A DNA stretch of 62,342 bases, the filler included, from Hausera hauseri (taxonomy: Eukaryota): NCBI GenBank assembly GCA_046269625.1. It is 11 parts of 11 records of this genome, joined end to end, with 100 filler letters (N's around TTAATTAATTAA, not from the genome) between each part and the next. Parts side by side here need not be neighbours in the genome. Positions count along the whole stretch, not along the records: positions 52,056 to 57,760 come from JBJURY010202858.1; 10 more parts are not named here. One strand, given 5' to 3'. The notes below the pieces were generated by a model. That model was given only the letters and a program-made list of their open reading frames with translations. It ran no database searches and had not been told where the DNA came from. The position numbers and the translations under genes are program-made. Shown here in pieces: positions 8,377 through 62,099 of the stretch (position 1 is its first letter; each line of letters opens with the position of its first letter).

Positions 8377-9850
8377 TGACTACGAAAAAAAAATAACTTG
8401 CAACATAATAGGATCATTTAGACAAAATGCGTCCATTTTTTATCGCACTTTATATACGGTTAAACTGACGGTAAATGATACAAAAAACAAACAAATTGCA
8501 AAAGATGTATATTTATTTGAAATACCTGAAGGCATTGATGATAGAGCATTGCTTTTAAATGTTACCTAGAAAGAATGGGCTATCAAGATGTAGACTTTAT
8601 TATGATTACACAAGGCTCCATATCCATTGCAGCGACGTATGGAAATCCCAAGTTGAAAATCATCAGATGTCACGTAGATACCTATTATTATTCATTTAGT
8701 GTTGGATCGGAAGTAGAATGTACTTATGTAGAAGAAAAATGGAGTCTGTGCTCTTTGTGCACGAAAAATTTTATTGCGTTTCCACGGGGAAATTTTACCA
8801 ATTATTATTTACCGAATCAATTATTATTTACTGAATCAAAATTGGAAATGTACAACACATTTCACGTTCATAATACCATCCCAAATAAAACAGACGTCCA
8901 AATATTTTATAAGCAAAACTTTTGGTCAGTAGATCTACTTCTGATAGAGGACCATGGTAATTTTGGAAAAGTTTATGGCAGTACTGATGATGATGAAAAT
9001 CACTCACTTGAGGACTATAAACAACCGACAGAAAATGAATATCTTTAGAAACCTGATCAAAATGATCACCAGGAACGATTTTCCCAGGAGCTCAGAATCT
9101 ATGCCAAACTAGATGGCAAAAGTGAATCTGGTAATAAAGCAAATATCAACAAACACATTCATGATCGACAAAAAATGCACCCACCGTTACTTCCGACTCC
9201 ATGGATACTTAAATAACAATTGCGACCAAAGTCAAGTCCTACGTCACCGAGTGGATTAGCAAATGGCTATTCACCTCAATCGAACTCCCGGGTGAAACAG
9301 TTGCTCGATTTCAAAATAACATCAAATATAAATGCTCAAACTGAAGACCGTTGTGCAAAACATTGTTTGAAGAGCACTTCAAAATTTCTAATGATTCCAA
9401 AATCTTTATTCCGAAACAAATGCTTATTAACGAACCTCATGTCACTTTGTTCGAGGAGGAAAATGATAGCTTATCACAGAACAAGAACAATTCAGAAACT
9501 GGTTTACATTGCTCTAGTAGTTCTCCAATAAACTTTTCACCTAAGTCATGTAACAATCATCCAACCGCTACACAGTGTTCGGGGTACTCAACTCCGACAT
9601 CTTATTGCTCGACCAATTCCGACGAAATAACACAAGGTAATTGTGACAGTTATTCATATACTCGATCATTTAAAATATCGGACGTTTCACCTGTAATTCA
9701 CATATCATCTCAGAATTATGATGGTCCTTATCGGAAAATTTCTGTTTGTTCCTCATCGAGAAGTCATTCTGGTTTTAATAATTTTGGTCGAAATACAAGG
9801 GATTCTCTGGCTGAGGGACCGAGCGTGCCCGCCCCCGTTACACCACTTCT
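8377..9850 (+). pseudogene. Unknown coding region (Cys/aromatic-rich part, then Ser-rich part) upstream of a UBL-Gag
   Basis: ORFs 8575-9048, 9220-9531 and 9351-9983. The last reads in frame into the ubiquitin-like domain. Confidence 0.45.
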
Positions 9851-10067
9851 TTCTTTTCTCATCTTTTCTAATAATAAACATGTCTATACATTGAGGGTTG
9901 CACACAAACAAACGGCACATATTCATTATTCTGAATTGTCCTTTTTTTCGGCTCCTATTTTTATTGTATGCATAATGGCCTAACTTTGTTACCTTACGAC
10001 TCTGTCATCCTTTACACCCGGGAAATATTCCATGACTCTCATTGTCCATTTTCGCATCCGTGGCGGA
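9850..10067 (+). pseudogene. Ubiquitin-like domain ending RIRGG (copy 1), frameshifted
   Basis: FLIFSNNKHVYTLRVAHKQTAHIHYSEL..FYCMHNGLTLLPYDSV..MTLIVHFRIRGG; RIRGG is at 10053-10067. Confidence 0.7.
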
Positions 10068-12602
10068 TCGGACCCTGACCCTTCCGCCGAATATTTCACT
10101 TAAACCAGATCTGGTCGTCGTCCTGTCGACCCCACACCATCAAAGTATCCGAATCTCCCCTGCACAGATTTTTCCTAGGTAAAACGAACTCGAGCCGCAC
10201 TTGGTTACAGTTTCATTTGCAATGGCTCAAAGCCAATCACATTACAGATTCCTTTCTGCGGGCTAACAGTTTGCTGCTATTACTTCCAGCTAAAATCAAA
10301 CAGCAAAGAAGTAATCTGGCTGGCCTACTCTCTTCTTCAAGGCCCTATGATATGCTGTATAAATCAGTTCTACATATCACCGACCCTTCGATCGACAGCA
10401 TAATTCAGAAATATTTTAATGAACACGCCATCGGAAATCAAAAACCATCGGATTTCTTTAAAACTGCCATCTTGCAATTGAGCTCCTTGGGCGTCACTCC
10501 CACAAACAATGCCGATCTTCTTCGTCGGTATTTTCTTTCATCTTTGCCAACCTCCATCCGAGCGATGCTGATTGTAGTAGACGACCCTACTCGCCTTGAA
10601 AAGCTCGCCTTGTTGGCAGACAAAAGTTTTGATATTCTGCAGTCTAATAGTTCACAGCCAGTAGCCGCAGCAACCGCTCATACACCTTCAGGCAACACTC
10701 TATTTACACAACAACTGCATTTGATGCAGAAGCAGTTCGACACACTCCAACAAGCAATTTCTGCGATCACAGTCAAACTCAGTGATTTATCCGTGCCTCG
10801 AGGAAGCGAAAATTGTATTTCACGCAATCGCAGTTTTTCCAGGCACTCTTATCGTTTCGAATCTAGAGATGGTAAAATGACGTGTTTTATCACAACAAAT
10901 TCCGCAGAGACGCAAGGAAATATGTTTTAGGCTGTCGATTCTACGATGAACGATATGCAGTAGACAATCCAATCTGCATCTATCACGAAAAGTATCAGTC
11001 CAAGGCTAGGTTGTGCTGTGCCAGGATGCAAATATTATAAAAGGAATTCAATTTTCTCTCCATTTTCTTCGCTTTCTCGTACTCATCATTCTTCTTTTCC
11101 TCAACAAGTCTCAAAAAACCAATAATGCCACCAGATGCCACGGCACATTCTGGCACAGGCAATGTCATTCAATCTTCTGGCCGTTTCAACATTGCCTCTT
11201 CAGTCTTTCTGTTGATAGCTGAAATATTATTTGGAGACACATCACAAATAGATTTCCTTATCGATTCAGGAGCTGCCTTTTCACTTCTTTCTTTGTCTTT
11301 CGCTCCTATGTCTAACACAGTTTTCTCTCCTCCAAATTTCACTGCAAGTGGACAACCGTTGCACGTTGCAGGAACCACGGAATTGACTTTCACATTCGCC
11401 AAATTGCCATATAAGTTTGTCTGGAAGTTCCACGTGGCCAACATTAAATCTCCAATAATAGGCTCAGATTTTCTTGCCGCACGTGATTTATTGGTAGATT
11501 GCAAATACAGCTGTCTTCTCGGCAGAAACTCGATTTCAACTTCAAACATGTGTCTCGCAGACAATTTAGCAAGCAATTCATTGCACTCATTACGAAACAT
11601 GTTGAACGTTTCGTCGTCTATTAAAAAAACTTCCGATAAAGTCGGTACGCCTTCAATTATGAACGACAATCATATATCTATTCTGAAACAAAAATCCAAA
11701 TTAGGTGTCGACAGCAGCGATGCCAGTTGCCTCTCTTCAGTCACTTCAGCTGTTCTTTTTAATGATACGCCTCAATCATTCTTATCTTTAGACTCCGATC
11801 TTAGATCAAATATCACAACATCATGCTTTCGAATAGTTAAAAAAAACATGAACTTCAAGCTCGCCCTCAGCTTATCATCAAATAGTAACGGAGCATCAGA
11901 GGCCTATTAAACGGAGGGTCGGAACTTTGTTGCCACGCATACGTAAAGCTGTGGAGCAGGAGTTTAATGAACTGGAAATGTCTGGCATCGTTCGGAAATC
12001 GAATTCTCCATGGGCCTCTCCTCTTTATGTAGTGGTAAAGAAAGATTGAACCTATAGGCCATGTGGCGACTATCGACAATTAAACATTCTAACTATTACA
12101 GATGCCTATCTACTACCACTCATTAAGTATATACTTCATAGCCTCAGCAACACCAATACCTATTCTACTATTGATCTGCACAAGGCCTACCATCAAATCC
12201 CTGTTGCCCCTGATGACATTCCAAAAACTGCTGTCATCACACCATTTGGTCTTTATGAATACATCTCCATACCTTTCGGCCTACGTAGTGCATCTCAGAC
12301 CTTTCAGCGCCACATTGATACCGTTCATTCTGGACTTGATTTTGCTCACCCATACATAGATGACATATTAGTCGCTTCAAGCTCCTCAACACAACATCAT
12401 GAGCATCTTAGAATTATTTTCCACAGATTGCATCAAAGTAACCTGCAAATTAATTTCTACAAATGCAATTTCTTCCAGAAACTCGTAAACTTCATATGCC
12501 ACATAATTAATCCTGAAGGGCATTTGCCCCAGCCTGATCGCTTACAACAATTAAAAAATGTAACGTTGCCAACTACAACTACCGATATGAGGAGTTTTCT
12601 AG
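10068..12602 (+). mobile_element. Ty3/Gypsy gag-protease-RT, decayed and cut by the contig end
   Basis: Gag with IGNQKPSDF and a C-terminal CxxH-type repeat. Protease FLIDSGAAFSLL...IIGSDFL (11125-11910). RT SPWASPL, RPCGDYRQLN, DL.KAYHQIP and YIDDILVAS (about 12350). Confidence 0.92.
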
Positions 12603-15330: not shown

Positions 15331-15355
15331 ATGGTTATTTTTGTATATTCCACAG

Positions 15356-18666: not shown

Positions 18667-18676
18667 GAACGGCACT

Positions 18677-19080: not shown

Positions 19081-19156
19081 ATAGCCGTTTTTTGGGGTCT
19101 AAAAAACTTTTCTTAGGGTCATCTGACACGGTGACCAACGTCCATTCAACGATTTC

Positions 19157-21050: not shown

Positions 21051-21153
21051 ATTTACTCTACTAAAATAAAAAAAGGTCAATCCTAAGACAGATCATCGTT
21101 TTGAACCAAGATATTTCCTCTGTCTGATGATAGGATAACGCGGTCTGTAACTG

Positions 21154-36445: not shown

Positions 36446-36539
36446 TTTTCTATCTGTCGCCGCTAAATGTTATATCGAATTTTGCTTCCTCAGAGCCTAA
36501 AAACATACTAATTCGCCGAATTTTGCACTTTAGATCGAT

Positions 36540-37330
36540 ATTAATCGATAAATAATGGATAAATTTAAATTCTAACTACACATTCGTATATTACACCATG
36601 TTTCCTTTCGAATGCACCAGGTCACATGTCCCAATCATCTATATTGGATTTATCAAAAATTCCATATTATTGATTTTTGCACACTTGCACACGTGTTTTT
36701 GCACTGCACACCACATATCAACGTGCATTTCGATGTGCTCTATCCATTAGCTTTTCACTCCGATCAATTCAATCAATCATACGATGCACAAGAGCAAAAG
36801 TGTGCAAAGTGAAAAAGTGCCCTGGAAACCGTATACAAAAGTACACATTACTCGAGTATTCCACTGATCGAAAGTACATCACGTACTGCATCCGCCAGTA
36901 CATATGCAATATTCATATTATTAATTTGAAATTTATAGCGGAAAGGCCTGTGGTGGTTCGGTCCCACTTGCGAATTATGTGAAAACCAATCATTCGATTT
37001 AAATTCTATCTGCACATTAATATAGCGCATCATGTGTGCTACCGATTTCACCCGGTGCCGAGTGCTAATCATCAATATTAGATTTATTGGAAATCCAATA
37101 TTATTGATTTTTGCACACTTGTACATGTGCTGCACACCTGCACTGTGCACCAATTGATGCATACTGATGTGCACTATCGACCACCATTTTGTCCAGATCG
37201 ATTCGATCAATACTGCAATGTGCAGCGATCGATTTGTAAAATGTGCCAAAGTGCACCTAGCAACCGTGCCTAGCGATACCGTCACCTAGCATTCTAAAGA
37301 TCGATAGTGCTCCGTGTGCTCTATTGATTG
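36540..37330 (-). repeat. Second copy of the repeat family at 30205-30946
   Basis: Reverse-complement similarity across both tandem units. Confidence 0.85.
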
Positions 37331-37386
37331 GCACATGTTCAGTATCGATTCCTGGGGGGTGGGACCGAACCGCCATTTTTCCCCTA

Positions 37387-41910: not shown

Positions 41911-43487
41911 TTTGATTCACTATCTCTTGCTGAGTTAGTTGGTATTAGATTCCTTACCATGTTTTCAATTCTAGTGGTCAACTTGTTTCTATCGTCGTCG
42001 TCAAATAGCTTTGACATATTTATCTCACTAGGTTTTTTCCTAGCAGCTTTTCGGATCAATCTAATGGTTCTATTAAATTCATTTTCCTTTAAGGGATTTG
42101 TTTTGATTGCCAAGTACAATATTACTTTCCCTAATTCTTCCTTAGTATTCTCTACTATAATTTTCTCGATTAAAACTTCTTCAGGTAAGTTGCTCTTGTT
42201 CATTTTGAACCGAAATGTTCTCATTATCTTTGCTGCGTCGTATATTGCTTTTTCCTTTTCATCTAACATCTCGTTTCTTGGTCCCGAATAGTTCATTATT
42301 TTTATAATGTTTCTCAGCAACTCGTTTAATTCTTCGCTATCGGAATTAACCGCGGGCATGGATAGGTGCCTTAGTTTTCATATCAGAGTTGCACTTTGGT
42401 CAATATCATCCTTATTTTTCTCGGCCTTCCAACTAGTCGTTTCTGTTTCAGCGCAGTTGGTACTTCTTCACTAATCGGTACTAGATTCTTATCTTATTGT
42501 TTCTTATCTTCCTCACTTTGGAGGTAGTCAAAATACATGACAGGGTCTCGGATTCCCATAATGTGCCCTACACAGTGTTCATTTCTAACTTTTCTTACAG
42601 CCTCATCTTTTGTCTGTTCATCGGTAATTATAGCCACTATTCGATTTTGTTCCTCCGGAATATTTCCAACGTCTGTTAGTAGCTCAGGAAGTATAACCGA
42701 TAATTTACTTAATCTTTCCCACTGTTTTGTAATATACATTGTTTTACTTCTCTAACCGATGTTATCGTTGTACATTTAATTTCTCTCTCTTCCATCCATT
42801 CAGCTTATATTTTTACCTTAATCGTTGGTTCGGGTTTAGCATTTAAGAAATCAGCGTATTTCTTTATCAATAGTCTGAGTACTAAGCTATAAACGGTATT
42901 TTCGCTTTATAGTTTGGTTAATGTAGGGATCAATTGTCTCAGTTTACTCCCCGTTATGTTTACGTTAATCTGTTCAATTAATTCTTTCTCGGCCCGTGCG
43001 GGGTATAAGAGCATCTCCATATCAAATCGTCGATCTGTTGGACGAATATCCATTTGTTGAAGTTGGATGGGTGTTTTGGGGTTTTGGTTGTACACATCTT
43101 CCAAATAGGCATCCCATCCTGAGTCGTCTGTGACGTCTGGTAATCTATAATCTAGTAATACCGTGGACGTACTTCGTATATTCTCGCGGATCTCATTTAA
43201 TCTTGACTGTACTTCTCTCATTAAGTTGGTCCTAAATTCTGCTCCGTTCCCACATGCCAATTGTATTGTTTTTAATGTCGGACCTAGTTCGTCTGTAGGT
43301 AACAACCCTCTTCTTTCATAATCTGTTAATTCGGTCGTTACATGCGTTAACCATCTTTGCACAAATTCTCTTTTACTCGTTAACTCTGACTGCGTGATCT
43401 TATATTTATTTTTATAAGTCTCCAATTCTTTGCCTAATTCATCTAGCTTCGCAGCTCTTTACTTTGTGCGGAGTCGCAACTCTTCTA
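41910..43487 (-). pseudogene. Helical gag-position ORF upstream of the glycoprotein
   Basis: ORFs 42907-43425, 42494-42739 and 41730-42359; the last runs in frame into the glycoprotein signal segment. No diagnostic gag motif was recognised. Confidence 0.45.
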
Positions 43488-43856
43488 NNNNNNNNNNNNN
43501 NNNNNNNNNNNNNNNNNNNNNNNNNNNNNNNTTAATTAATTAANNNNNNNNNNNNNNNNNNNNNNNNNNNNNNNNNNNNNNNNNNNNCGCTATTAACTTT
43601 TGCTCACCTCGTCACGGGCTATCGATATCACTCGGTCCGAACCTCTTCACTCGACCTCTTTTCCGCGGAGGGGGGTTTCCGATTATTTTTAGTAAAATGT
43701 TCAGAATAGCCAATCAGGTGGGGAAAATTGGTCGGCGGACCAATCAGAGAGGTGAGGTAGGGAAGACACTTCTACCTACAGTTTCAAATCGCGAAGTACA
43801 AGAAAAACGAAAATTTGATGGTTTAATATTTTTATTTACTTTAAATATTTGGCACG

Positions 43857-44560
43857 CTACGCATTGATCAACTCAATTCTGAACATCCTTTTGCTTAAAA
43901 GGTCAGATAACCTGATTGTGTAGTAGATTATAAGTGTTTTTTGCTCCTGGATGATGCAATCGGTGCATGTGATCGAATGCCTTTTTTCGGAAGGAGTTAT
44001 GCAGTATTGGTCTTTTCCTACCATGAATTGAGGTATCGAAATATATGCCATCCGGTAAATTGACGAACTTGAAATGGATTAAATCTTCCTTTCAGGGCTG
44101 CTTTTCTCGAAGTTCGTCTGCCTCAATTATTGAAGAAAAAGTCAATGAAGCTACGGGATGCGGTAAGAAATCTGTGAGAATGTTTCGTAATCCCGGAATG
44201 TGTACTATGTCAAAGTGAAAAATGGACAAATAAGAAATTTGGCGTTTTTGTATGAGTGAAGGTTGCTTCATGTTAAGCATGTAGAGGAAAAGTTTATGAT
44301 CAGTCTGAAAAGTGAATGTTCGAGCTTGAAAAATATGCTTAGTGTTTAACTGACATCATTACTGCTAATAATTCTCGATCAAACGTACAGTACCTATGTT
44401 CGACTTCAGAAAATTTTTTGGAGAAGAATTCCAAAAGTTCGTTTCGACCATTAGCATCTTGGTGAAGTACGGCGCCCACTGCGACTGTGGATGCATCTGT
44501 AGTAAGAAATAATTTTGCGCTTGGAACTGGAAAAGCTAGTAATTCTTGTAGTGCCTTAAA
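43857..44560 (-). mobile_element. Gypsy RNase H and integrase zinc-binding remnants
   Basis: LTTDASTVAVGAVLHQ, FDRELLAV, TDHK, HIPG..NILTDFL and AFDH.H.LHHPGAK. Confidence 0.8.
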
Positions 44561-44964
44561 TGTGATCGCACTGGAGGGGTACTAATTGGTGAGGAGATTT
44601 TCTTCATGCAACAACAAACACCGAATAATATTGCTAATCAATATACCAACCAATTCGTAAGCCTCATACCAGTATAAAATTCAGGATTCAGAAATCTTAC
44701 CTGGTGGAACTCTCAGAATAACAAATGAGCATTGTTTGAGTCATTAGATTGTTCGAGAAGCATTCTATCTGGTGCAGTCAAAAACAAAAACAATCTTCCT
44801 GTAGTTCCTATCATAAGTAAAGATAGAAGATTTAAGTATCTCCTCCAAATGTTAATCAAAGACACCGACACATTGTAAAAATCAACGAACGTTGTTGCGG
44901 AACATAAGAAGTTACATTAAGGAACTTTAAAAGTCTAGCATAAACAAAAATCTGACTAACTAAT

Positions 44965-45182
44965 GTATCGTGTACGTGTGTCATATGTATATATATATTA
45001 TGTGTTTCGTGTCAATTTTATTATGTATTAGATAAAAATTATGTACTAAGTGGGTTAGAAAATTAATTATTGATTTCTTGTTTTGAAAGTAAAGAATAAA
45101 TTATCTTTCATCTCGGCTATTCTTTTATCGTCTGGATTTATCTTTTCCCGATATGAAACTACATTTAGTGTCAGAAAGTTCC
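44965..45182 (+). mobile_element. LTR 3' part and PBS immediately upstream of the clathrin retrocopy
   Basis: AATAAA at about 45095, then ...ACTACA|TTTAGTGTCAGAAAGTTCC, which matches the intact PBS TTTGGTGTCAGAAGTTCC at 50296-50279 on the minus strand. Confidence 0.65.
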
Positions 45183-45194
45183 GTAATAGTGCAA

Positions 45195-47500
45195 ATGAGT
45201 AATTCTGTGATGCCTATACGATTTCAGGAGCATTTTCAGCTTTTGACAATCGATAAAAGTGCTGCACCCTGACGATTGAACCGGATAAATTTATTTGCGT
45301 TCGAGAACGAGCAGGTGAAACATTTCAGGTTGTCGTTGCCGATCGAAAAGGGCCCAACAAATTCTATCAAATGGCCAATTTCTGCCGATTCTGCAATAAT
45401 GAATCCGATCAGTAAAGTGATTGCGTCGAAAGCCGGGAAAACTGCAAATATTTAACATTGAATTAAAAAGCAAAATGAAACTTCAATTTATCGGAGGACG
45501 TCATCTTTTGGAAATGGACGTCATTTTCGATGAATACGATTACTCTTGTTACGGAAAGTGTAGTGTTCCATTGGTCAATGGAAGGTGATTCAAGTCCTAT
45601 AAAAATATTTGATCGACATTCGTCGTTAAACGGTTGTCAAATCCTTAATTATCGTTGTAATCCCAGTATGAAATGGCTAATTTTAATCAGTATTTTGGCA
45701 CAGCAAAGTAGAGTTGTTGGTGCTATCCAATTGTACAGCGTTGATAGGAAAGTCAGTCGCACAATCGAAGGTCATGTAGCATCGTTCGCACATAAAAATC
45801 GAAAACACTCCAAATGCATCCACGTCGTTTTGTTTTCCCGTTCGCAGAACACAACAGGGAAAATTGCATACAATTGAAGCTGACCAGACTCCTACCGGAA
45901 ATCAACCGTTCATTAATAAGGCTGTCGATGTTATATTCTCACCGGAAGCAGCAGCTGATTTTCCAGTAGCTATGCATACTTCCAACAAGTACAATATAGT
46001 ATTTCTAATCACCAAATATGGTTACATCCACTTGCACGATATCGAAACCGGAACATACATTTATGTAAATCGCATCATCAGTGAAACAATATTTGTCACA
46101 TCACTGTACGAAGCCACCGCTGAAATTATCGGAGTAAACCGAAAGGGTCAGGTTTTATCTGTTTGGGTTGAGGAAGACACGATCGTTTCTTACATTACAA
46201 ATACTCTAACATGCCCGACTTGGCTTTACGAGTGACTAGCAGAAATAATCTGCCAGGCGGAGTAGACATTTTGGTTCACGATTCAACAACCTTTTCAGTA
46301 GCGATCAGTATTCCGAGGCTGCAAAGGTCGCAGCAAGTGCACTGAAAGGAATGTTAAGAACTGCGCAAGCAATTCAGCGATTTCAGCAAGTGCCTACTCC
46401 AAGAGGCAAATCGCCTTTACTTTAATCATTCGGAATTTTATTAGACCAAGGACAACTTCGCAAATACGAAAGTCTGGAACTCTGTCGACCAGTTATTTTA
46501 CTAGGCAAGAAACGGTTACTCGAAAAGTGGTTAAAGGAAGATAAACTTGAATGCTCCAAAGAACTGGGTGACATTGTTAAAGAGAGTGACCCCACATTGG
46601 CATTGCCCGCTTATTTAAGAGCAAATGTGCCTCAGACGGTTGTTCCGTGTTTTGCAGAAACGGGGCAGTTTCAGAAGATTATTCTGTACTCGAAAAAGGT
46701 TCGATTCACACCAGATTACGTATACCTGCTGAGAAATCTGATGAGAATAAATCTTGACCAGGGTCTACAACTAATTTTGAAGGAAGCTAAATTGACCGAT
46801 CACTTATCTCTCATAATTGTCTGTGATAGATTCAATTTTGCTCACGATTTGGTACTTTATCTGTACCGGAATCTACTGCAGAAGTACATTGAAATATACT
46901 TGCAAAAAATGAACTTCCAGCGACTGCCATTTGTCTTTGGTGGTTTGGTCGATGTCGATTGTTCCGAACAGGTTATTATACAACTCATAATGGTTATCAG
47001 AGGCCGGTTCAGTACCGATGAACTTATTGTCGAAGTCGATAAACGGAATTGACTCCAACTGTTGTGGCCATGGTTAGAATACCGAATCCACGATGGATCC
47101 GTTGGACCGGCAACTCACTATGCACTGGTCAAAGTCTATTGGAATAGAAACAACAACCAGTGACGAACTCTGCAAGAAAACCAGTTTTACAACAGTCGTG
47201 TTGTGGGAAAGTACTGTGAAAAGAGAGATCCCCATTTGGCATGTGTTGCATACAAACGCGGTCAGTGTAATCAGGAATTGATTAAAGTATGTAACAAAAA
47301 CAGTTCCTTTAAAACCGAAGCACGATACTTGGTTTGTTGTAAAGATCCTGATCTTTAGTGTAAGATTTTGGGCGACAGCAATGAATACAGACGTCGGCTA
47401 ATCGTCCAAACAGCATTGTCAGAAACTCTGGTTCCCGAAGAAATCTCCATCGCTGTCAATGCACTTATGGCCGCCGATATGCCCAATGAATTGATTGATG
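45195..47500 (+). pseudogene. CLTC: Clathrin heavy chain processed pseudogene (N-terminal part, intronless, internally deleted)
   Basis: [76 protein letters not shown] and LIIVCDRF; many frameshifts and stops. Confidence 0.96.
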
Positions 47501-48250
47501 AAAAATTCGATGTTCTCAAACTTTCTTATCGGCACTTGTTCAGACAGAATTAAAACTGCTGATATGTACCTCCAGGTCATTGATATTCACATTTACAAAC
47601 TCTCCGTTTTCGTCAGTGATATTGTGACTCAAATTCTTAGACAAGAACTACAAACTCTCATAGCATCTGTTGCTACAACTGAATTGTCGTTCTCTATTGG
47701 AGACCCCGAAGGTTCATTAGAGAATGTGTCTGTTGAACACTTAAAAAAATCGGTGCGTCAACATCATCCAAAAACTCCAATTCCACAAAAAACCCTTCGC
47801 ACCATATTCGACCTTAGTTTCTCAAAAAAGTACGATGTTCCACAAAATCTGTCTCCAAACGATAACGTCGTGAAAGCTGCTCAACGTTATCAGTTTGTTA
47901 TCGACGGGAAAACGGCAACAACGAACTCATTGGACGCACTGCGAGTCAACAGCAACCTCACCGACCGACCGGTAGACGTTCTCTCATCACAGGCATTCAA
48001 ACACAGGTTGGTGAAATTCTTTTCGCTGATTTGCGCCCACCAGTGCGGCCATTTTTTGCGCATATGCAAATCCTTCGTGGCTGACACCAACTTTCATTTA
48101 AAAGGCCTTTAAGTTCAAGAACTCTGGATATTATCTTATCACAATTAATATTTGCCACTACTTTTCCGACTGCACGCTCGAACCTCTTCTTAACCCAAAA
48201 GGTAACCGCCCAAGCTCTCCATGCATGTCAAAGTTCTCCTGGGATTACCT
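47500..48250 (+). pseudogene. Unknown coding region between the clathrin copy and UBL-Gag
   Basis: 205-aa ORF 47495-48112 with no recognised motif. Confidence 0.4.
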
Positions 48251-48254
48251 CACT

Positions 48255-48740
48255 GAAAATTTCCTTCTTGGTATTTATCAATAATCAACTCATACAAACA
48301 ATGCGCACTTACCGACACGGCACAGTCCTTGTACAACTCCTTGTCCCTCCTATTCCACCCTTCTGATTTCTATTTCACACATCATGGTCTCACTGTACAT
48401 CCTCCCGACTCGCTTTTGCCATTCAAATGCCACGAACGTCCGATCATCTATCTCATGCTTACGTCCGCCTTCGGGGTGGATCGGACCCGAATCCATCTTT
48501 CTGGGATGATAAATACACATACATACAATATCTAACGTGTACCAAACTGTCAACAAACACGAGCTTTGTTAAATCTACCTTGTGTGGATTTTTTTCTTGA
48601 TAAAAACAACTCCAGCAAACCATGGGCCCAATTCCACCAACAGTGGCTAAAATCCAACAACATCACCGACTCCTTTGTGCGGGCCAATAGTCTTTTGATA
48701 CTTCTGCCTGCCAACGTCAAGCAGCAGATCAGTAACTGGA
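48255..48740 (+). mobile_element. Ubiquitin-like domain ending RLRGG (copy 2) and truncated Gag N-terminus
   Basis: ISFLVFINNQLIQTMR..SLYNSLS....SDFYFTHHGLTVHPPDSL....HAYVRLRGG|SDP, with RLRGG at 48466-48480. Gag WLKSNNITDSFVRANSLLILLPA matches the gag at 10217. Confidence 0.8.
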
Positions 48741-48793
48741 AGTTTTAAATTGTAATGATATAATAAATAAATAGTTATTCTGACCCCCAACAT

Positions 48794-49207
48794 GGTGCAG
48801 AGCACTAACCACGCTCTGCTACCATAAAATGGATGATATAAAATAGATGCCTCATTATAATTTAGAGGTTTGCTGGGCCCATTATTTGTAAACTTTGTTC
48901 CACAATTCATATTCTCTATTATTATTTGTATTTCTCTTTTCGAGTCCCATAACCCCAGTACCGGTTTCTTTTGTGGAAAACAAATTATCATCTGAGGAGA
49001 ACACCCATCTCCACGTTTATCTCTTTTTATAGTCACTACTACCCCGTCGGATTCATTTGTTCCGAAATTTTTTAGTGTTGACCGAAATTTCATAACATCC
49101 GGTCTATATATCCCCATATACCCTTTACCAAATATATATAGATATAAAAAACATTCAATTTAATTTTTTCATTTTATGGTAGCAGAGCGTGGTTAGTGCT
49201 ATGCACC
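48794..49207. repeat. 38-bp inverted repeat pair containing a tRNA-iMet-type PBS
   Basis: 48794-48831 and 49170-49207 match at 37/38; the core is TGGTAGCAGAGCGTGGTT. Confidence 0.85.
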
Positions 49208-49218
49208 GTTGAAATCGT

Positions 49219-50570
49219 TCATATATTCAATATAAAACATCCAATGTCAAAGTCAACCATCAAATCTCCACCAACCGCGCAATCAGAAAATGGCACAGAA
49301 AATACTGTCAAAATAGCATTTTTTTTCCTCATCGCAATCCAGTCATCGGCAACGCTGGGACTTGCTAAATAAACTTTCTCTGTCCCTAGTTTACCCGACA
49401 AAAGAGACGCCAAATCACTACCATAGAACAACCCATCGGATAAAATCCACTGACCAAACGGACTCGTCATGAGGCCCAAATAGACGGCAAATAAATTTAC
49501 AAACGCCAATGATGCTGACAAAGCAGTTATCAGCATATCCTTTGTCGTATTGTCCAGCAATTCGAATTCTTAATTTTAACTCAGTCGGTTTTTCTGTCTA
49601 TTTGTAATCATTTAGTCCATGAAATACTTCTTTAATTGAAGTATTTTTATTTATTTCGTCAAATGCTTTGAATAAATAATTTCGTGCAGCATTTGTCTGA
49701 TTGTCGTTGGATAATTCCGATGTAATCAACTGATGACACGATTTGAACTGATTGTGTAATTGCTGTCTAACGAATAACTGATTAAAACAACATGTACAAT
49801 CGACACATTTTCCTTCATCTCCACTTGTACACAAAACACGTTTAAAATCTGATTCTCCGCCGCCTTTTTCACATACATGTAAAGGATTTAAAATGACTGG
49901 TTCAGAATATTTATTTTTACAATGAAAACAAACTGTAGGTGATTCCTGTTGAACTTTAAGACTGTCACTTTCTTCATATTCAAAAGAAAAATCTAAATCT
50001 GATATAAATCTGATATGATTGCGAAATTTATCGGGTCGTTATTTCGTGGTTGCTCTGTATAGTAAAATATCGTATAATGGTAATATATCACAACGAATGC
50101 ATTACTTAAAAAGCAACTGCCATGTAAAAAATAAGTTCCGAGGGTGTCCCCAAAAGTTGCCAAAATCACCCACCTTTGTGTTCCAAGTGTGTGGTGGCCG
50201 CGGTATGCGCAGTCCACTTGACTGATTTCTTGATATCTGCCGAACCAGAAATTTGTAATAAATGACTTTGGATTTTCTGGAACTTCTGACACCAAATGTT
50301 GTGACCAGAGTTTTCATTAATTGTAATATGTATCTTTTCTATATCAGACTTATTTACGATTAATATAAAGTGAGTGACCCGATTTTGTTGGTGCTTGGAA
50401 ATACCCTCAGAAAAATTTACTTGCCCCAACGGAGTTTGTTTTTCTATTGGAACGGGGGATTTATTAGTCATTATAAATTTCAAGTTCTTCCAAAAGTATT
50501 TATTTTCAAAGCAATCAACGAATAATTCAAATATTTTTGTATCAAGGATAAATCTGTATTTCAATATTGT
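49219..50570 (-). mobile_element. LTR 3' end and PBS (50296-50279) followed by non-gag Cys-rich and hydrophobic ORFs
   Basis: CACAACA|TTTGGTGTCAGAAG; an open frame at about 50040-49598 with CFHC...C...C...CVDCTCC; ORF 49219-49560 is hydrophobic. Confidence 0.55.
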
Positions 50571-50869
50571 ATATTACAGTTTTCTTTTCAATTTCTTTTG
50601 AATTTCAATTTTTTGTTTTTCTATGCTGGAACCAAGTACTTTAATAAAGCAAAGCGATTCTCGCAATCAAATGGTAACTTCCGGAAGCTATTTCACTAAA
50701 TAATCACATATATACAACATCTACTATTATTACAGTATTAGATATAATGATAAAATATAATGTGGCGAACCGCAACACCTTTGATGGGCACAACACTATT
50801 CCGCACGGCTGAATTGAAAACCGTGAAACCAAAAAAATTAACAAGAAAAATAAACAACAAGAAAAATGC

Positions 50870-51955
50870 TTATGAGGTTTTCGTGTGTATCAGGCGTTGT
50901 ATTTTCTCAGAATTTAGTTGTCTACTGTAGGTACTGAATATCACTGACTTATGATGTCTCAATGTTTTGGTGTCTGGTTGTTGGAGTGGTTTTGGAAGAA
51001 CAATATCAGCTTCTGCACTGTTGGATGTTATCTCCTGCGAATGTAAGTCAGAAGGGAAAGAAGTGACTGAGGGTGTATGATTGATGTTATCTCGTGTAGT
51101 ACTAGAGGATAATGGGTCGAAAGAATAAGGAAGGTTTTCAATGACAAAAGTATAATCTGGAAAAGGAATAGGAGGACAATTGAAAGGTGAAGTAGAAGCA
51201 GAAACAGAAACAGGTACAGAAGGAGATGTAGGAGTCAAAAAGGGAGTTGATGTTTCAATAGGAGAGGTATCATCAACGAAAAAGGCCGGTTTTACGTTGT
51301 TAATATGAACTGCGTTTTCCTTGCCGTGTTTAAGGATGATGGCGTTGTGAGAGTGTAACTGGATCAGTTTATAAGGTCCCAAATACTGTGGTTGAAAACC
51401 GCTCGGCGTTTGATTTTTCAGCCAAACGAATTTTGCTGAATAAAGGTCATCTGGTAAATATGTTTTGTCATTGTGTAGCAACCTACAAAATGTGTCTTTA
51501 CTGGCTGTAACAAAGTGGTTTTGTGCCACTCGTATTGTTTCGTCCGTAGGTGTGTCTTCTAAAGCCGCCAGTTCGAACAAGGACCGTACAGGAGCACCAA
51601 ATAGGGCTTCTGTAGATGAGAATCCTGTAGAAGTGGATATAGTGTTCCGCCAGCCAAGCAGAACAAACGGTAGGAGAGTTGTCCAGTTTGCATTGGATTC
51701 TGCCATAATTTTAAGCGATGCTTTTAGCGTTCGATAAAACCGTTCAAGAAGGCCGTTTGATTGAGGATGACAAGATGTCGTTTAGATGTGGCTTATCCCC
51801 AATCGGTTAACCAGTGATTTAAACAGATTTGATTCAAATTGAGGGCCTTGGTCCGAGACGATGAAACAAGGAGATCCGAACCTACTAATCCACGTACCAA
51901 TGAAAGCATCCGCCATGCTTGGGACCATCGCGACGAACGGTCCATCATGGTCAGA
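50870..51955 (-). mobile_element. Gypsy integrase core and C-terminus
   Basis: IVSDQGPQFES, HPQSNGLLERFYRTLK, LPFVLLGWRN and YLGPYKL. Confidence 0.92.
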
Positions 51956-52496
51956 NNNNNNNNNNNNNNNNNNNNNNNNNNNNNNNNNNNNNNNNNNNNT
52001 TAATTAATTAANNNNNNNNNNNNNNNNNNNNNNNNNNNNNNNNNNNNNNNNNNNNTGAGCAAAAGTTAATAGCGGTTCGGCTTACAGAAATTTAAGGGAG
52101 AGGCGCTAGAAGAAAAAACAAAACTGAAAATGCTCACGTGTAACGCGAAACATGTTGCTAGCACGGAGAAAAATGTGTACAAATGATAAATCAATGTTGG
52201 TGAATTCAATGGACACGGTTGCAACTCAATTAGACCGTGGGAACGTGGGAAAAATCTGTGCGAAAATTTCAAACGGGGAAAATTTCCCCTTACACAAGTC
52301 AAACGGCGATGGAAATGAGTTGATGGAAATTGGTGTCAGAGCATATTTTGGAAAATGGATGAAAAAAAACGTATTTTTAACTTCTAACGATACCCAGATT
52401 CTCCAAGATAGCAAAGAAATGGTTAGTATTGCCGACGAATTTAATATATTTGATTTATCAGTTGATTTAAAACTGTTGTTTTTCATAGTTTGCGAA

Positions 52497-53695
52497 ATGG
52501 TAGCATTAAAAATTTTCAGGTCTTCAAATAATTATTTGATTCGATGTTTTGCATTTCGCGAAAAGCATGTTGAAATAATGCATGAAGTGAATATTCAAAT
52601 AATAAGTGATTCTTACCGAAACAGATTTTCTTACAATTCACCATCACAAAAACTTGATTTACGTGAAACGTGTAGCATTCTTGAGAAATTGAATGTTGAT
52701 ATTTCAAAAATATATAAAAGTAAATTCGTTGAATTCGACCTACCGACGAAGCATGGAAATAATGTTGAAAGCCATCTGGAAAATGCTGCTAAACGGATTA
52801 CTTCGCCTTTTTTGACACTTTTTAACGACGTCATTGGTGATTGGAATATTCCAACAATCCCAAAACAGTGGAAATTCTAAAGTGGATGGATGAAATACGA
52901 TAAAACCAATCAAAGTGCAAGTAAGGTTGACGTTCCAGATGAAGATCTATTATTTTTCGACGTTGAAATAATCACTGATAAAAGTCATCGGGCAGTAATT
53001 GCTGTTGCTTTGGAAGCCAACAATTCGTATTCATGGACGAGTGATCAGATGGTAAAGGGTATTCCACGGAATAATTTCAATATAACAAGCGATGAATTGG
53101 TTCCGATTTCCGATAGAATGAATAAATTTAAGCCGAAATGGATAATTGGGCATTTTGTTAGTCTCGATCGACAACAAATAATGGATGAATACTATATTGC
53201 AAGTAGCGCTATTTGGTTTATCGATACAATGTCGTTACATATTAACATTTGCGGAATGATGTCGTTACAGAGGAGTTTGAAACAGTCATTTGATAAAAAT
53301 CGTGTTGACAATAAATTATGGAGACAATTTTATTTAAATGATCGAGAAGATATTGATGATTTTTCTATTGAAGAAATTAGTGATAATGAAAAGTAGATCA
53401 ATGACGCTTCATTCATTGGCCTACAGGAAGGGTTCACACATTATTATTCCAAAAGTAATATTGCTACATGTAAAAAGTTGCAAGAAGTTTTCCTAAAGGG
53501 TTCTACGGAATTTGTAGTAAAAGATTTTTAAAGTCTAACCACATATTACGCTACCAATGTATTAACGACTGCTTTGATATGTCGAAAATTATGGCCTGAA
53601 TTTCCTGATCGTTTCCCTAATTTGGTAACAGTTGCCAGGGTGCTTGAAATGGGTTCTTTTTATCTTTCAGTTAATGAGAACTGGAACAAATATAG
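52497..53695 (+). pseudogene. POLG: Mitochondrial DNA polymerase gamma catalytic subunit, exonuclease region, intronless decayed copy
   Basis: ExoI FFDVE, ExoII IIGHFVSLDR, FIDTMSLH and FPDRFPNLVT...LEMGSFYLSVNENW.KY. Confidence 0.9.
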
Positions 53696-53714
53696 AAAAA
53701 GTGCCCGAATTCAT

Positions 53715-54858
53715 CTGGATTTATTACCGCAAACGAGACAAACAATAAAAAATCGTTTCGCAACATTTTTGCGATCGTACATGAATTTCGAGGGGAAGTC
53801 GATGTATTCTAAACGAATTTCTGCTATGGCATAAAGGATTGAGCGAAGTTTCGCTGTCGATTATGAGCATTTGGTAGCAACTGAACAGGCATTAGCACAT
53901 TTTGTACCGGAAGCACCATTGTAAATGTTGGAAATATTTGATGAGGTAGCATTTGAAGCCATCAAACACAGATACAAAAAATACGAGAAAATATCAAACA
54001 TTATCCACATACGCATTTGCCATCTACCCTTAATTGAAGAAATAAGATCTCTACGTAAAACTCACATCAATCAGTTAATTCGTGTCTCCGGAGTAGTTGA
54101 AAATTGCATAAATACTTTCCCTCAGTTGAGTCAAGTTTATTAAGGATGCGTCTAATGTTGCTGCGTCGTTGGACCGTTTATACAATCTTAGGTGAATAAG
54201 TAAATTAAACCGACATCTTGTCCAGATTGCCAGCCGATTGGACCTTTTAACATCGATCCTGAACAGACTGTATACAAAAATTATCAAAGAATTACTATTC
54301 AAGAAACTCCAGGACATGTTGTTGCTGGGCAATTGCCACGTAGTCAGAAGACAGTTCTGACGGACGACCTTGTTGATATGTGCAAACCTAGTGACGAAAT
54401 TGATGTTACTGGCATTTTGTGTTTGCAATACGATTCGTCAATGTTAGTAGATGGCGTATCTACCATTCCGACCTCGACGTCATTCGGTGATTGTAAGACT
54501 GAATTATTCATTAGAAATTTATTATAAAAGTTTGTATAACAATTATCTCCTTCACTCATTAAATGATTCTTCTTTTCAAACATTTTTGAATTTCCTGATT
54601 TTATATTGGCTGTTTATTGATTTAACTGAATTGAATTTAAACTTTGATATTCGTTTAAATTCCTGCTCACAGTCACAAAATATCAAACATGGATTTCCTG
54701 CGTTCTATATTTATATCCTCGTCAATAACCTGATAAAAACTGATGAACAACTCATCCTCAGTGGACTAAACGATGAGGAAGTTTCGGTGACTAACGCGTT
54801 GTCAAAGGACGAGAGACTGTTTGAACGTATCGTCAAAAGTATTGGGCCGATCATCTAT
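53715..54858 (+). pseudogene. MCM2: MCM2 N-terminal region, intronless decayed copy
   Basis: IKNRF..FLR, PEAP..MLEIFDEVA, LPLIEEIRSLRK.H.NQLIR.SGVV, CPDCQ..GPF, NYQRITIQE.PG.V.AGQLPRS and HGFP. Confidence 0.93.
54442..54671 (-). mobile_element. Solo LTR inserted in the MCM2 copy
   Basis: TG..CA ends and a 5-bp target duplication GTCAA/GTCAC. It is homologous to LTR 17378-17601, and its removal restores YDSSQNIKHGFP. Confidence 0.9.
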
Positions 54859-54859
54859 G

Positions 54860-56620
54860 AAATGGATGCAATTCCTCCCTCTGCACGATATCTTGCTAAT
54901 AAAACCGATTTCGCGTTCACCGACCCTATTCATTATATCTATAGCTTCAAATTGCGAAACCTTACGCGTTGTAAAACATCAACGGCACAGCAAGTTCTTC
55001 AGATAGATCTCATGATCGTATCCACCAGTTACGTTTTGCTCTGCGTTAAGTAAAACAGTAATATCACCAAGGATTCGGACAAATTTACTTTCTGGACAAA
55101 ACTTTTTTTGAAATCCGATACTCCAGAACACGGAGCACAAACCCTCCGACAATTGTCGAAAGAGCTGTTACAACCACTCGATGGACTGCTGTGCGTTCTG
55201 GAGACTTTGTAAGCAAAGGATCACGAGTGAAGCTGACTACTACGGATTTGGCAGCGTTCGCCGATATGGAACCGGACGGCAAATTTGATTTCTTTGACAC
55301 TGTGGCATTGAAGGAACTTAGCAGTCAGTTAGAACGACTGCAGGAATTACCTCACTCATTTGGATTTTGTCAGTCTGTTGTACCACTCGCCACTGTTCAC
55401 CAAATAGGCGCAGATATATTTGATGTGCGCTTTACAGGAGAATTCCACACTGCCATCGACATGTTCAGAACTGAATTACACCGGCGGTTTGCTCATATCG
55501 TAGACCGCACATCCACAATTGGTGGATCAGATATTAACGAGGGACAGCAACTCGTGTTATATGCTCTTCTGTTTACCATTCGCGACGTTAAGGAATCTTC
55601 CTCTCCTCTGGAACATTTATTCACTGACAGTTCATCTCTGGACATCGATATCATGCTTGTTGACTTAGCTGCCTTTGGTCGTACGGCAACTGCTTCCCCT
55701 GCTACCTCCGGTCCATGAAAGTCTGTCAACAACAATTATTCGCTTGAAGAAACGAGTAAGTCACTGGGATATTGGGGAATAACGATTGAGCACGGCATCA
55801 TTACGATTAACGCGTTTAAAACGATTATAAAGAAGAGTTATTTTGGTAATGACGTTAACTTTAGAACTGATGAAAACGCCGAATTCAAACAAACATTGGC
55901 TCAATCGCGTAATTGTCGGAATTCGATTCGAGAATAGGTTGTTAATCACACCAAGAATTTTGGTCAGCAAGGCTCAGGCACTAAGTCAGGTGTTGTGCAT
56001 CAACAATGATTCATTGTACTTTGGTGCTGCATTCGTCATGAAAGACAATGGCGAACGAATTGGCCTGAAGAGACGGACAGTTACATCAGACGTTCGATTA
56101 CAATTCATTCGACACATAACTTTGCATATAATGCCAACGATGTCCCACCGAATGATTTCGTACTTTCCGGCAATACTCAGATCTTTACGGGATAACACCG
56201 TGTTGAACATGCTCCTCGACGACTTCGGAACCCAAATTATCACTTTCGAACGTAAGCCGATTACTGATACATTTATATTTTCTGTAAATATTTTTAAATT
56301 TCCACTACCCGAAGCTTACCAACTTCTCAAAAGTCGAATTCGTAATTCAATTTGTTTACACTTTTATGGCTTAGTCCAAAAGTTAGTTAGGAAGTAAAAG
56401 GAAGCCACGAAATGTTATCCGAAAATTTCGAAATAGGCTCAAGAGTTCATTCAGCCATTGCGTGATTTCGGGGGGGGGGAGGAACTCGGGCACCCCGTAT
56501 TTTCGTACTCGCCCCGTCGAGGCTAAGATCCCGACCGTCAACCCTGCGCCGGTCGGTCGGGGGAGGGGAGCACCTTCGACGTCGTCCCCAAGTCACGCCC
56601 CAGGCCCACCACTGACCCCA
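54860..56620 (+). pseudogene. Unknown coding region upstream of UBL-Gag
   Basis: Consecutive ORFs 55191-55718, 55843-56397 and 56462-56797 with no recognised family. Confidence 0.5.
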
Positions 56621-56624
56621 CCTC

Positions 56625-57760
56625 CATTCTCTTTTTTTATAATAACATTTACACCTTTCAAACCCACCTTTCTTCTATCCTTGGTTCTTCAGACTTCTTC
56701 CTTACTCATCACGGCGCTATCATTCATATTAACGAAACTTTATCTTTTCCAAATCGAGCTTGCTTCAACATACATCTCCGTATCCGTGGTGGAATGAATT
56801 CCCCACCGATCACTGACACCACGGATACAACCACCACGAAAAAGCCAATACCCATTCTTTATTACTCCAAACCAAACACTCCGCTTTCTTCAATCGATGA
56901 AATTCCCATAAAAACCTTACCAATACTCAACACTGCACTGAATACTTCGTAGGTAACGAAAAGTCCAGTAAAATGTGGCTTCATTTGCACAAACTCTGTC
57001 TCCAGTCTAGTGGTATCACAAAATCCTTATCTAAAGCCCACAGCTTGCTCTATCTCCTCCCGAATTCCATAAAAGCCTCAATACACAATCTGCTAGAGAT
57101 CTTTCAACACCCTGACCCTTATACCCAACTATTCGATGCTGTATTGAAAGAGACCGAATTTTCCATTGACTTTATAATGCAGCATTTCTTCAACGAAAAT
57201 GCACTGGGCACACAAAAACCCAGCGACTTCTTACGCACTTCACTGGCACACTTGCGTATTCTTGGAGTAACTAAGGAACAAAACCCTGATATTCTACGCC
57301 ATTATTTTCTGAATGCCCTACCTATCCAAATACTGGCCTTTCTTACCGTGGTGAAAGACTCCACGCAGCTTGAAAAATTGGCCGAATTGGCCGATAGGAC
57401 ATGCGATGTCCTCCACATAAATTCGCAACCCGTAGTTTCAGCAACAGTTGCTGCTAACGACATATAAACAACTAACACGTGCATAGAACAGCAGCTAAAT
57501 CAGTTACGTGCTAAAAATATTGCATTTCAGGCAACTATCAACAACATAAATAATAAATTAAATGAATTGTCTCTGTCCCGACGAGGGGGTTTTGTCGTTT
57601 CCCGTGCCCGTTCTACGTCACGAAACCGCTCACCATCACCTGCGCGTTCGTCGATCTGCTACTACCACAGCAGATTCAACACTAATGCTCAGAAATGCTG
57701 CCTGGGTTGCCAATTTTACAACAGTAAATTTTCCTCCAACACCGTTATCTGCATTTACCA
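56625..57760 (+). mobile_element. Ubiquitin-like domain ending RIRGG (copy 3) and Gypsy Gag
   Basis: SDFFLTHHGAIIHINETLSFPNRACFNIHLRIRGG, with RIRGG at 56779-56793. Gag has LGTQKPSDFLR, RSRxRSPS and CYYHSRF...A.KC...C. Confidence 0.85.
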
Positions 57761-59444: not shown

Positions 59445-62099
59445 TCAACGAGGTAACACAAAACACTGCACATTCATACTATCATTTTTTATGGCACCAG
59501 GCAACTTTTTCAATTCGCCAAATGACTGAAACTCCACAAATCCATCAAAACAATCATTGATCAAATTTTCTGGTCGCTCATATGCCGCTCGTCTCGCTCC
59601 AGAATTTTCCCGACTAAATCGTTTCATCAAGGCATTCAATCCCGTTTCCTGATTGACAATTGAAATCTCCACAATCCGTGACATTGGCCACGGTAAATTT
59701 TTGTCATTCGGTCCATTCATCAATTGGAATGCCAACCACAAACCATCGGAGAATTTCGATATCCAAAAATACAATCGCAATTTGTAGCCAGTGGAATTTG
59801 CGTTACTGAAAAATGGTTTGCTGTATTCCCATTTGTTATTCATGAACTTTGTTGTAATGTTAGAAATTTTCCATGAAAATTTTTCCATTTCCCCTCCATT
59901 CGTGCCAAATTCCGTTTGAGACGGTTCCCAATAAATAACTTCGGCATCCTTTTTCTTGTTTTTATTCACGACAGAAAAATCACTCGACGGATTTTCCTAC
60001 AACACAACTCGTTAGTTTCGCAAAATTCCAATGAACCTTGTCGAGTCTCGATGATCTATTCTGCAATTCAAAGTCACTATCAGTGTTGCTGTCACGGAGG
60101 TCGGTGTCTTCATCATAGCGACGTATTTTTAATGGGCTCATTTCGGTTGGTTTTGTTGTTTTGCATATATCAACCCGTTTTTTCTTTAGAAATGCATTGA
60201 CAACACGGTGTTTTGTCTGTGGATATCGATAGAATCAAATCAATTATTTCATATTTCACAATCGTACCTGTTTGTTGTCACTATGATCTGACTTTGACTT
60301 TCGTTGAATATTTGTCAAATCGACCTGAATACAACTCATATTTGATGGAAACAGAAATAGACAAACACATTATCCATTAGAAATAAAATAAATTAAATGG
60401 ATTTATCATTAAATTTTATATGAATTAATAATACTTTTACAAACGAATTACTGTCGTCAAATGTTGGAATTTCGTCTTCTTTCTGAATACTTCTCATTCA
60501 TTTCCCCATTAAATGAAAATGATTAACATTCATCATCAGTCATCAGAATGACAATACACAAATGATTTTGAATATTAAATTAACTGAATACAATTTTAAT
60601 TTGTCAAATTATTAACAACAATTCATTAATAATCAATTATTATTGTAATATTGATATAGAAAATGATGGATGGGTATTTTATGAAAATGTTAAATAAATT
60701 GGACTATTGAATGGGGAGTAGAATGGGGGAGGGGAGGACGTAACTTGGAATTTGAATTTTCAAAATGATTTTTCATTTTGTATTAGATAACACAACGTTT
60801 TGTAAATAATTTTCATAAGAATCCATATCAAAATTACACGTCATTCTAATAGCAAATGCAAAAAGTCCTATCCATTTCTGTGACGGATAAATGCCATTTG
60901 GATAATTGATTATAAATTCTAGATGAGAATTTTGTATGATAACAACCGTATGTTTTATCAATGGATTCATATCATAACAATGTCATATTACTAATTTATT
61001 AAATTCTTTACATTTCATATCAATAATTTTTATAAGTTTACCTACAATTGATTGTATTCGTAATGAAGTTATTATTACCAATAAATAAAATGTTATTTCA
61101 AATATAATTTTCATGTCAAATTATCAAATTGTCCCATAATTCTTATTGAAAATTTAAATCAACATGACAATGAACTTCAACTTCATTCCAAACAATTGTT
61201 TGTTATGTCTATCAAAAAGAAGTCGATGGTCGTTACTTCATTTCCTTTTGTTTAATATCATAGACAATCCATTGCCAAATTGTAATCTTCCTTCTTGTCC
61301 ATCGACGTTTAATCGTAACCCAAAATTTTATTTTACCAATTTCACACTAAATTCCACTCGACTGTTACCATTTCATCATTTCAATAAAAACCCCATCTAA
61401 ACGATACTACAAAATTTGCTCACCCGATCATTCTTCAACGCCGCCAAATCTGACAGAATTTCGTCCTGTTTTCGTCGGAGTTCGGCAATTTCTTTTATCG
61501 ATTCATTCTGAAACAAGAGAAATGGATTTCAAATACAACAAAATATTTACCATTCGTTTTTCTAATGATATAAATTTTCTTTTCCAAATAATATTATCAG
61601 CACCATCGTAATTTTCTTCTCCATCTACAGCTGTTGTCGATTGTTCATTGAATTGATCGTTATTGAAGTGATCTTTCATATGTTCGTACAATTTCTTTAA
61701 TTGCCATTTCTCACCACAATTCTGATACGGGCATTTCACATGCAAATATGACACTTGCATGTTGCCCGGTGCGTCTTTCACAATGTTCTCGTTCACGTTC
61801 AACAATTGTTCGCTACATTCCTCCTTTCCACCTGGACAAATTTTTTCGTCATTGCTCAAGTACTCCGTAATACATGCTGAACAAAATTTGCATCCACATG
61901 GTGCAAAACATGAGTCAATCAATATCTTTTTACAAATGATGCATTTTAAATTATCTGGAATGGTGGATACAAAATGAATATCGTACAATCGCAAAATTCG
62001 AAAAACGTCAGTCATATCTTTTTGATGATAATTTTTCAAATAATGTTTATAATTGTAAATGTCAAACTATATAGGTTTAAAAAGGTTGTGTTTATCCAT
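59445..62099 (-). CDS. TRAF: TRAF-like gene (RING, zinc finger, coiled coil, MATH), spliced and possibly disabled
   Basis: RING CIIC..PCGCKFCSAC..CP and zinc finger CPYQNC..H..DH. MATH FSWKI..YSKPF...GYKLRL..LM.GPND..LPWP. Introns at 61508-61550, 60325-61423 and nearby. In-frame stops near 62068 and 59980. Confidence 0.8.

Follow-up and report, generated by a model that had tools for sequence, protein, structure and literature searches.

Probable capture of host-gene fragments ahead of a ubiquitin-like domain and Gag in gypsy-type elements of Hausera hauseri

Three UBL-Gag copies on separate contigs

There are three copies of a ubiquitin-like domain (UBL) followed by Gag in the window, by which we mean the whole 62,342-nucleotide stretch of Hausera hauseri DNA that was analysed. 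The window consists of 11 separate contigs with artificial N44-TTAATTAATTAA-N44 spacers (880 N) between them, and the copies lie on contig 3 (copy 1, 8377-12602), contig 9 (copy 2, 43588-51955) and contig 10 (copy 3, 52056-57760); they are thus unlinked. The contigs are 4-8 kb long and TE-nested, and two of the three copies begin at a contig end within their cargo, the region upstream of the UBL. All three are disrupted by stops and frame breaks, and their likeness to one another in DNA is restricted to short words. Contig 10 carries on one strand, in this order, a piece without identity, fragments of POLG and MCM2, an open reading frame termed X, fragments of piwi and RPB1, a second piece without identity, a leader, the UBL and Gag; on contig 9 the order is an LTR-like stretch, clathrin, ORF Y, UBL and Gag. 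The identified fragments are all in sense orientation, and features named below are on the plus strand unless stated otherwise. A public run, X1, contains 32% of the sampled contig 10 words; as the run may derive from the source sample itself, we do not count it as independent support, and depth in it hints only weakly at copy number.

In copy 3, a UBL ending in LRIRGG (56611..56793) leads into a broken Gag (56794..57760) with a CX2HX9CX3C knuckle at 57657. Copy 1 (9831..12602) is also broken; after its UBL (IRGG ending at 10067) come Gag, a protease (RVP, E 0.046) and a reverse transcriptase (RVT_1, E 6.3e-24), in the order of Ty3/gypsy elements. Copy 2 (48217..48730) retains a UBL (LRGG ending at 48480) and a broken start of Gag, truncated by another element; the truncating insertion contains a 56-nt inverted repeat (84%; 48794-48849 / 49152-49207). 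The only long Gag relative found is P0001, a predicted gene model 64% identical to copy 1, in which an arginine-methyltransferase piece (PRMT5 family, E 9.1e-5) precedes the same UBL-Gag; as P0001 is a prediction, the methyltransferase-UBL fusion may itself be one. From its motifs we take the methyltransferase piece to be CARM1. The Gag of P0001 bears two tandem CX2HX9CX3C knuckles (residues 832-880). The elements also show a weak DUF7041 match.

The UBL comprises about 75 residues and terminates in R-[IL]-R-G-G, with its di-glycine, in all three window copies and in P0001. The best match of the P0001 UBL is the Sde2 N-terminal ubiquitin family (PF13019, E 3.2e-4), at 21.5 bits and hence under the Pfam cutoff of 26.4; SDE2 is also its sole PDB match (E 1.5), and the copy 3 UBL found no family in Pfam. 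The weak match suggests a resemblance to the cleavable SDE2 domain, and falls short of establishing an SDE2 origin.

An initial annotation described the regions before the three UBLs as coding-like on the gag strand, and this is borne out by plus-strand stop-free frames that are longer than in dinucleotide shuffles (longest frame reached by 3, 3 and 0 of 1000 shuffles in the three regions); on the minus strand, 23-33% of shuffles reach the longest frame. Likewise, the three upstream regions are mutually dissimilar in DNA and protein (blastn, tblastn) outside UBL and Gag, as had been judged by eye. The boundaries then drawn proved too narrow: 54860 is merely where MCM2 homology ends, and clathrin lies before 47500. 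It was also claimed that in copies 1 and 3 the last ORF runs in frame into the UBL. For copy 1 this holds, with ORF 9345-9983 entering the UBL before a first stop at 9981; in copy 3, ORF 55831-56397, the last long one, shares the UBL frame and is separated from it by three stops (56395, 56434 and 56524).

Identity of the cargo

Contig 10 starts with a coding-like piece without identity (52056..52496) that overlaps a repeat of very high depth in run X1 (52056-52437); a primer-site-like 12-mer lies at 52331 with no LTR end ahead of it. There follows a fragment of the mitochondrial DNA polymerase gamma gene, POLG (52725..53708, human residues about 122-449), which contains stops and may start near 52497, and then a fragment of MCM2 (53724..54861, human residues about 192-490), joined to POLG in one frame without a stop at the junction. 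The MCM2 piece is interrupted by a 237-bp TG..CA repeat on the minus strand (54441..54677) that is not present in other copies; it is likely to be a solo LTR of another gypsy family, because a second copy (17377-17606) precedes a minus-strand Gag-like ORF. The repeat has very high depth.

Downstream of ORF X (54862..55718) lies a piwi fragment (55725..55992) corresponding to residues about 534-624 of planarian SMEDWI-3, with a frame break near 55905. Its two pieces are 52% (55725-55910, from residue 534) and 39% (from 55903) identical to SMEDWI-3, and neither alignment score was reached by any of 500 shuffles. A search of 1.84 billion proteins with 55206-56240, stops read as X and leaving aside piece X-A of ORF X and the UBL-frame reading of 55831-56394, returned a PAZ and Piwi domain protein as its sole match (E 6.9e-8); this relative clusters with Schmidtea mediterranea WI-3, the one fact from which the host is taken to be an animal, and likely a planarian-type flatworm. 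The following 163 nt (55993..56155) continue the frame in which the piwi piece ends. They contain a short internal deletion and match RPB1, the largest subunit of RNA polymerase II, at two colinear motifs (19 of 19 PDB matches, best E 0.0015). As Pfam and NCBIfam both miss this piece, we grade it as a likely RPB1 fragment. A continuation of RPB1 beyond 56155 in another frame was tested and found unsupported. The next piece (56156..56394) is open in the UBL frame and had no homolog in the searches performed, and the GC-rich (59%) leader (56395..56610), which holds the three stops, does not fold beyond its shuffles (z 0.62).

In copy 2, an LTR-like TG..CA stretch with a primer-site-like motif (44893..45176, starting at 44893 or 44963) ends 19 nt before the ATG that opens a fragment of clathrin heavy chain (45195..47500). 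The latter runs from the start codon to near residue 1007; an internal deletion, which keeps the frame, takes it from about residue 531 straight to 760. The fragments of POLG, clathrin and MCM2 are colinear with their proteins and lack inserts, and alignment to these proteins and to SMEDWI-3 shows the POLG, MCM2, clathrin and piwi identities.

The primer-site-like motif ahead of clathrin presumably resembles a tRNA-Leu site. A second LTR-like end, at 50302 on the minus strand after a gypsy integrase, carries a motif agreeing with this one at 17 of 19 nt and is followed (50302-49222, minus strand) by coding-like ORFs instead of Gag, one of them cysteine-rich, without Pfam matches; this is possibly another cargo-bearing start. 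Compared with each other, the LTR-like stretches of contig 9 agree at their ends and not in their interiors, where 287 of 300 shuffles reach the same score, and this pairing was rejected.

The cargo of copy 1 (8377..9830) consists of coding-like pieces with host-like codon choice, the last ORF of which enters the UBL; no host gene was identified in it.

ORF X, which runs from ATG to TGA and is split into two open pieces by a break of frame near 55205, makes up 49% of 54860-56620, and ORF Y occupies 47564..48112. For ORF X, a protein search near its length gave 756 candidates and none at E<=1, and for Y a search confined to 112-359 aa (132 candidates) gave no homolog. No homolog of X-B was present among the 1.84 billion representative proteins, and neither X-B nor the copy 1 ORF had a match in the atlas. 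PDB searches were negative for X-B, Y and the copy 1 cargo, as were six-frame Pfam searches for ORFs X and Y and, for all eight cargo queries, PHROGs and NCBIfam; metagenome and viral contigs held no related loci. When 23 short cargo pieces were compared with Pfam, the matches were weak, and the best (DYN_lid, E 0.034) was rejected. Single-sequence folds of X-B and Y (pLDDT 36 and 38) are too low for fold comparison. A synonymous-codon classifier, positive for 7 of 8 element pieces and negative for 7 of 10 host pieces in leave-one-out trials, assigned an element-like codon choice to X-B and Y (0.065 and 0.058 per codon) and a host-like choice to piwi-b, RPB1 and the copy 1 cargo. By eye X and Y share colinear motifs; their homology is not significant (p<0.05 in 2 of 20 alignment settings), and no relatives were found from which to build a profile. 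X and Y may represent an accessory ORF native to the elements, or remains of one.

The cargo had initially been described as unknown. This no longer applies to about a quarter of 54860-56620 (piwi with 268 nt and, likely, RPB1 with 163 nt, of 1761), and it still applies to the roughly half that is ORF X.

Junctions, sibling copies and divergence

Six of the eight junctions are in frame (P about 0.02 for a chance of 1/3). Those counted as in frame are POLG-MCM2, MCM2-X, X-piwi (with a stop at the joint), piwi-RPB1, RPB1 region-UBL (with three stops) and copy 1 ORF-UBL, and those counted as out of frame are clathrin-Y and Y-UBL; adding the clathrin deletion and a deletion in sibling copies gives 8 of 10 (P 0.003). 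Homology fixes both frames at only two of the eight junctions, both in frame (P 0.11), and at the others the frame was assigned by which frame is open. The frame bias is suggestive, not strong.

Sibling copies were recovered from run X1. Two contigs span the MCM2-to-X junction, with 0 differences in one and 16 in the other, and this junction is thus present in two diverged copies. One diverged contig (35 differences, 16 gaps) reaches from clathrin across 47500 to 47609. A 692-nt contig tracks clathrin over 46775-47055 only, as a parent exon might, with no splice sites seen; three others continue. ORF X is apparently missing from some siblings, since four joints connect MCM2 to piwi or RPB1 and bypass X, albeit in matches of 80% likeness whose flanks are short (30 and 47 letters) and are separated by unknown letters. 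Two of the four, both MCM2 to piwi, share a 9-mer in the same codon phase, as matched by 46 of 5000 random positions. From these sequences, the X-skipping joints point to deletion by template switching at microhomology, and to X being dispensable.

Among the differences listed between copies, 5 of 33 are synonymous in POLG and MCM2, 5 of 18 in clathrin and 4 of 9 in Y, where 27-29% would be expected under neutrality. These counts draw on 40 of 582 and 40 of 498 differences, of which 33 and 27 were used; those outside the tested frames and one clathrin row beside an indel were left out. On this measure the POLG, MCM2 and clathrin pieces look neutral, drifting between copies.

The depth of run X1 on contig 10 is 36-119 over POLG, MCM2 (the inserted repeat excepted), X and piwi, with 79-112 over piwi, and 1200-28000 over UBL-Gag. 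The values for contig 9 are 6-42 across clathrin and the LTR-like stretch (13-24 over the latter), 47-650 over Y and the leader, so that ORF Y is deeper than the clathrin piece, and 2100-3600 over Gag. Because depth is far lower over cargo than over Gag, each cargo seems to mark a small subfamily. The LTR-like stretch ahead of clathrin may belong to another family, because its depth is low compared with Y and Gag and its primer site is not of the tRNA-Trp type.

An exchangeable N-terminal cargo slot had been proposed for these elements. What stands is a variable region ahead of UBL-Gag; what does not is a set of intact, exchangeable ORFs, as the region holds largely captured mRNA debris. Four differing instances (three contigs and P0001), the tendency of junctions to be in frame, the neutral divergence of identified cargo, and an LTR-like and primer-site-like start directly ahead of the clathrin piece all support a variable slot. 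A single homologous ORF, which the initial annotation had weighed against its own proposal, is ruled out as far as the host fragments are concerned; between X and Y the likeness is not significant.

Origin of the cargo and the possible role of the UBL

The reading that we favour is that of decaying CsRn1-like, gypsy-type LTR elements with chains of host fragments ahead of UBL-Gag and a tag that is predicted to be cut. We put the probability of this whole chain at roughly 0.55. That the host fragments were captured into the elements is the firmest part, and we hold it to be very probable. Counting against the whole are the absence of any intact copy and, in copy 3, the three stops that part cargo from UBL.

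Capture would proceed by reverse-transcriptase template switching, copying in co-packaged host mRNAs, so that sense fragments build up over successive rounds. Copies whose 5′ region stays open into UBL-Gag would then survive best, as is suggested by the frame bias at the junctions; a long open ORF might also be kept if a stop would destabilise the RNA, or else if Gag is made from an upstream start. A host deubiquitinase is predicted to cut after the di-glycine, freeing Gag from any upstream load, and the cargo would thereafter drift as a neutral passenger, neutral divergence having been shown for three of its fragments.

Multi-gene capture has a precedent in LTR-mediated retroposition in animals, in which internal ORFs are replaced (Tan et al., 2016, PMC5131818), with maize Bs1 cited there as a related case. 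The retrocopies described share with the present cargo partial host mRNAs, several parents per chimera, microsimilarity at a junction (here the MCM2-to-piwi joint of sibling copies) and further copying; as far as that account goes, they differ from captures that recur 5′ of UBL-Gag, in several diverged lineages, and tend to its frame. Members of the CsRn1 clade are characterised by a single CX2HX9CX3C Gag knuckle and a tRNA-Trp primer site (PMC2582038). The knuckle, the order Gag-protease-RT and the weak DUF7041 match are common to both, whereas the UBL before Gag, the second knuckle (in P0001) and the kilobases of cargo set the present elements apart from the clade as outlined there. A tRNA-Trp-type site after an LTR end was searched for and not found; the one primer-site-like motif ahead of clathrin belongs to a different type and is possibly not cognate.

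For the predicted cleavage, a working analogy is offered by cytopathic pestiviruses, in which inserted host RNA pieces with ubiquitin mark a processing site for hydrolases of the host (PMC8310069, PMC13517609). Host pieces and a UBL precede the viral protein in both cases, and in pestiviruses the cut after the domain sets the N-terminus. In contrast to the recent, near-intact ubiquitin reported for these RNA viruses, the UBL here is old, diverged and fixed in a retrotransposon family, and its cleavage is predicted. SDE2, which is described as being cleaved after its UBL by USP5 (PMC13572447), similarly has an N-terminal UBL followed by a C-terminal product, and is the best UBL match, below cutoff.

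The strongest competitor, which we nevertheless consider rather unlikely, is that these are ordinary LTR-mediated retrocopy chimeras: non-autonomous copies in which host fragments have taken the place of part of the 5′ region. On this view the family has a diverged accessory ORF of its own, seen as X and Y, and the UBL is irrelevant to cargo tolerance. The anatomy of the retrocopies in PMC5131818, so far as set out there, is the same, the host pieces are of low depth relative to Gag, and X-B and Y, besides their element-like codons and motifs colinear by eye, each start with an ATG near the end of host homology. However, the homology between X and Y that this would predict is not significant, and frame retention would not be required of non-autonomous chimeras, yet six of eight junctions are in frame. 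Capture also lies 5′ of the UBL in every identified case.

It is improbable that the host fragments lie outside the elements, through insertion beside processed pseudogenes, or are chimeras of short-read assembly. Short, TE-nested contigs, the lack of a visible 5′ LTR for copies 1 and 3, and the status of P0001 as a gene model would fit such an origin. Between cargo and UBL, however, neither an LTR end nor a primer site was found; four host genes adjoin in one orientation and frame; and separately assembled contigs bridge the junctions in diverged versions, with the reservation that X1 may itself stem from the source sample. Least likely is selection on the piwi fragment, whereby anti-element piRNAs would also hit host piwi-3 mRNA and weaken silencing: the fragment's 268 nt are near the 140-235 bp given for Drosophila telomeric captures (PMC13534243) and the deletion variant drops X while retaining most of the piwi piece, but a piRNA gene supplies one of six identified fragments, the rest being housekeeping, and the piwi piece is frame-broken and as low in depth (79-112) as MCM2.

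In the Drosophila telomeric retrotransposons, piwi, aub and nxf2 have been captured, 8 of 9 captures are of piRNA genes, and there is piRNA evidence (PMC13534243). A short piwi-family fragment inside a retroelement is common to both systems; unlike those LINEs, enriched for piRNA genes as reported, the present elements carry one piwi piece among housekeeping fragments.

Gene capture by LTR elements is known and is mostly regarded as a dead end for the copy concerned. If the tag uncouples Gag from what precedes it, as the capture reading predicts, this would explain how working elements can carry and reshuffle host coding pieces in frame. Going further, and with considerable doubt, an SDE2-like self-releasing tag might constitute a cost-free 5′ landing pad, through which autonomous elements keep shuffling germline mRNA pieces into a translated polyprotein, including a piwi piece usable against the host. 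A piwi-3 fragment in a likely planarian element also offers a starting point for work on transposon counter-silencing in a group that serves as a stem-cell model. Multi-gene LTR capture, the capture of piwi by retroelements and the use of ubiquitin as a signal for processing are known separately; for their combination in a gypsy Gag, the literature searched, mostly without subscription papers and without supplements, contained nothing describing a UBL before Gag together with captured host fragments.

Another comparison is with Burro, a giant gypsy element of planarians with an N-terminal Gag, CCHC knuckles and extra domains after Gag (PMC6431247). It is likewise a flatworm gypsy element with a long polyprotein and host-like domains, including a SUMO/ubiquitin-like one; in the present elements, by contrast with what is described for Burro, the cargo lies ahead of a CHCC Gag and lacks conservation.

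Other elements are present in the window. Two related gypsy elements (72% over 2.1 kb) lie on the minus strand at 36066-43487 and 17004-25418, both with long extra ORFs after integrase; the extra ORF of the contig 8 gypsy element resembles a viral glycoprotein. The ORFs at 2093-3923 and 15332-15970, one of which has zinc-finger-like repeats, are taken by us to resemble regions of a Polinton-type protein-primed DNA polymerase. Finally, RING-like and MATH-like ORFs on the minus strand (59445-62066), which we assume to form a TRAF-type host gene, served as codon training.
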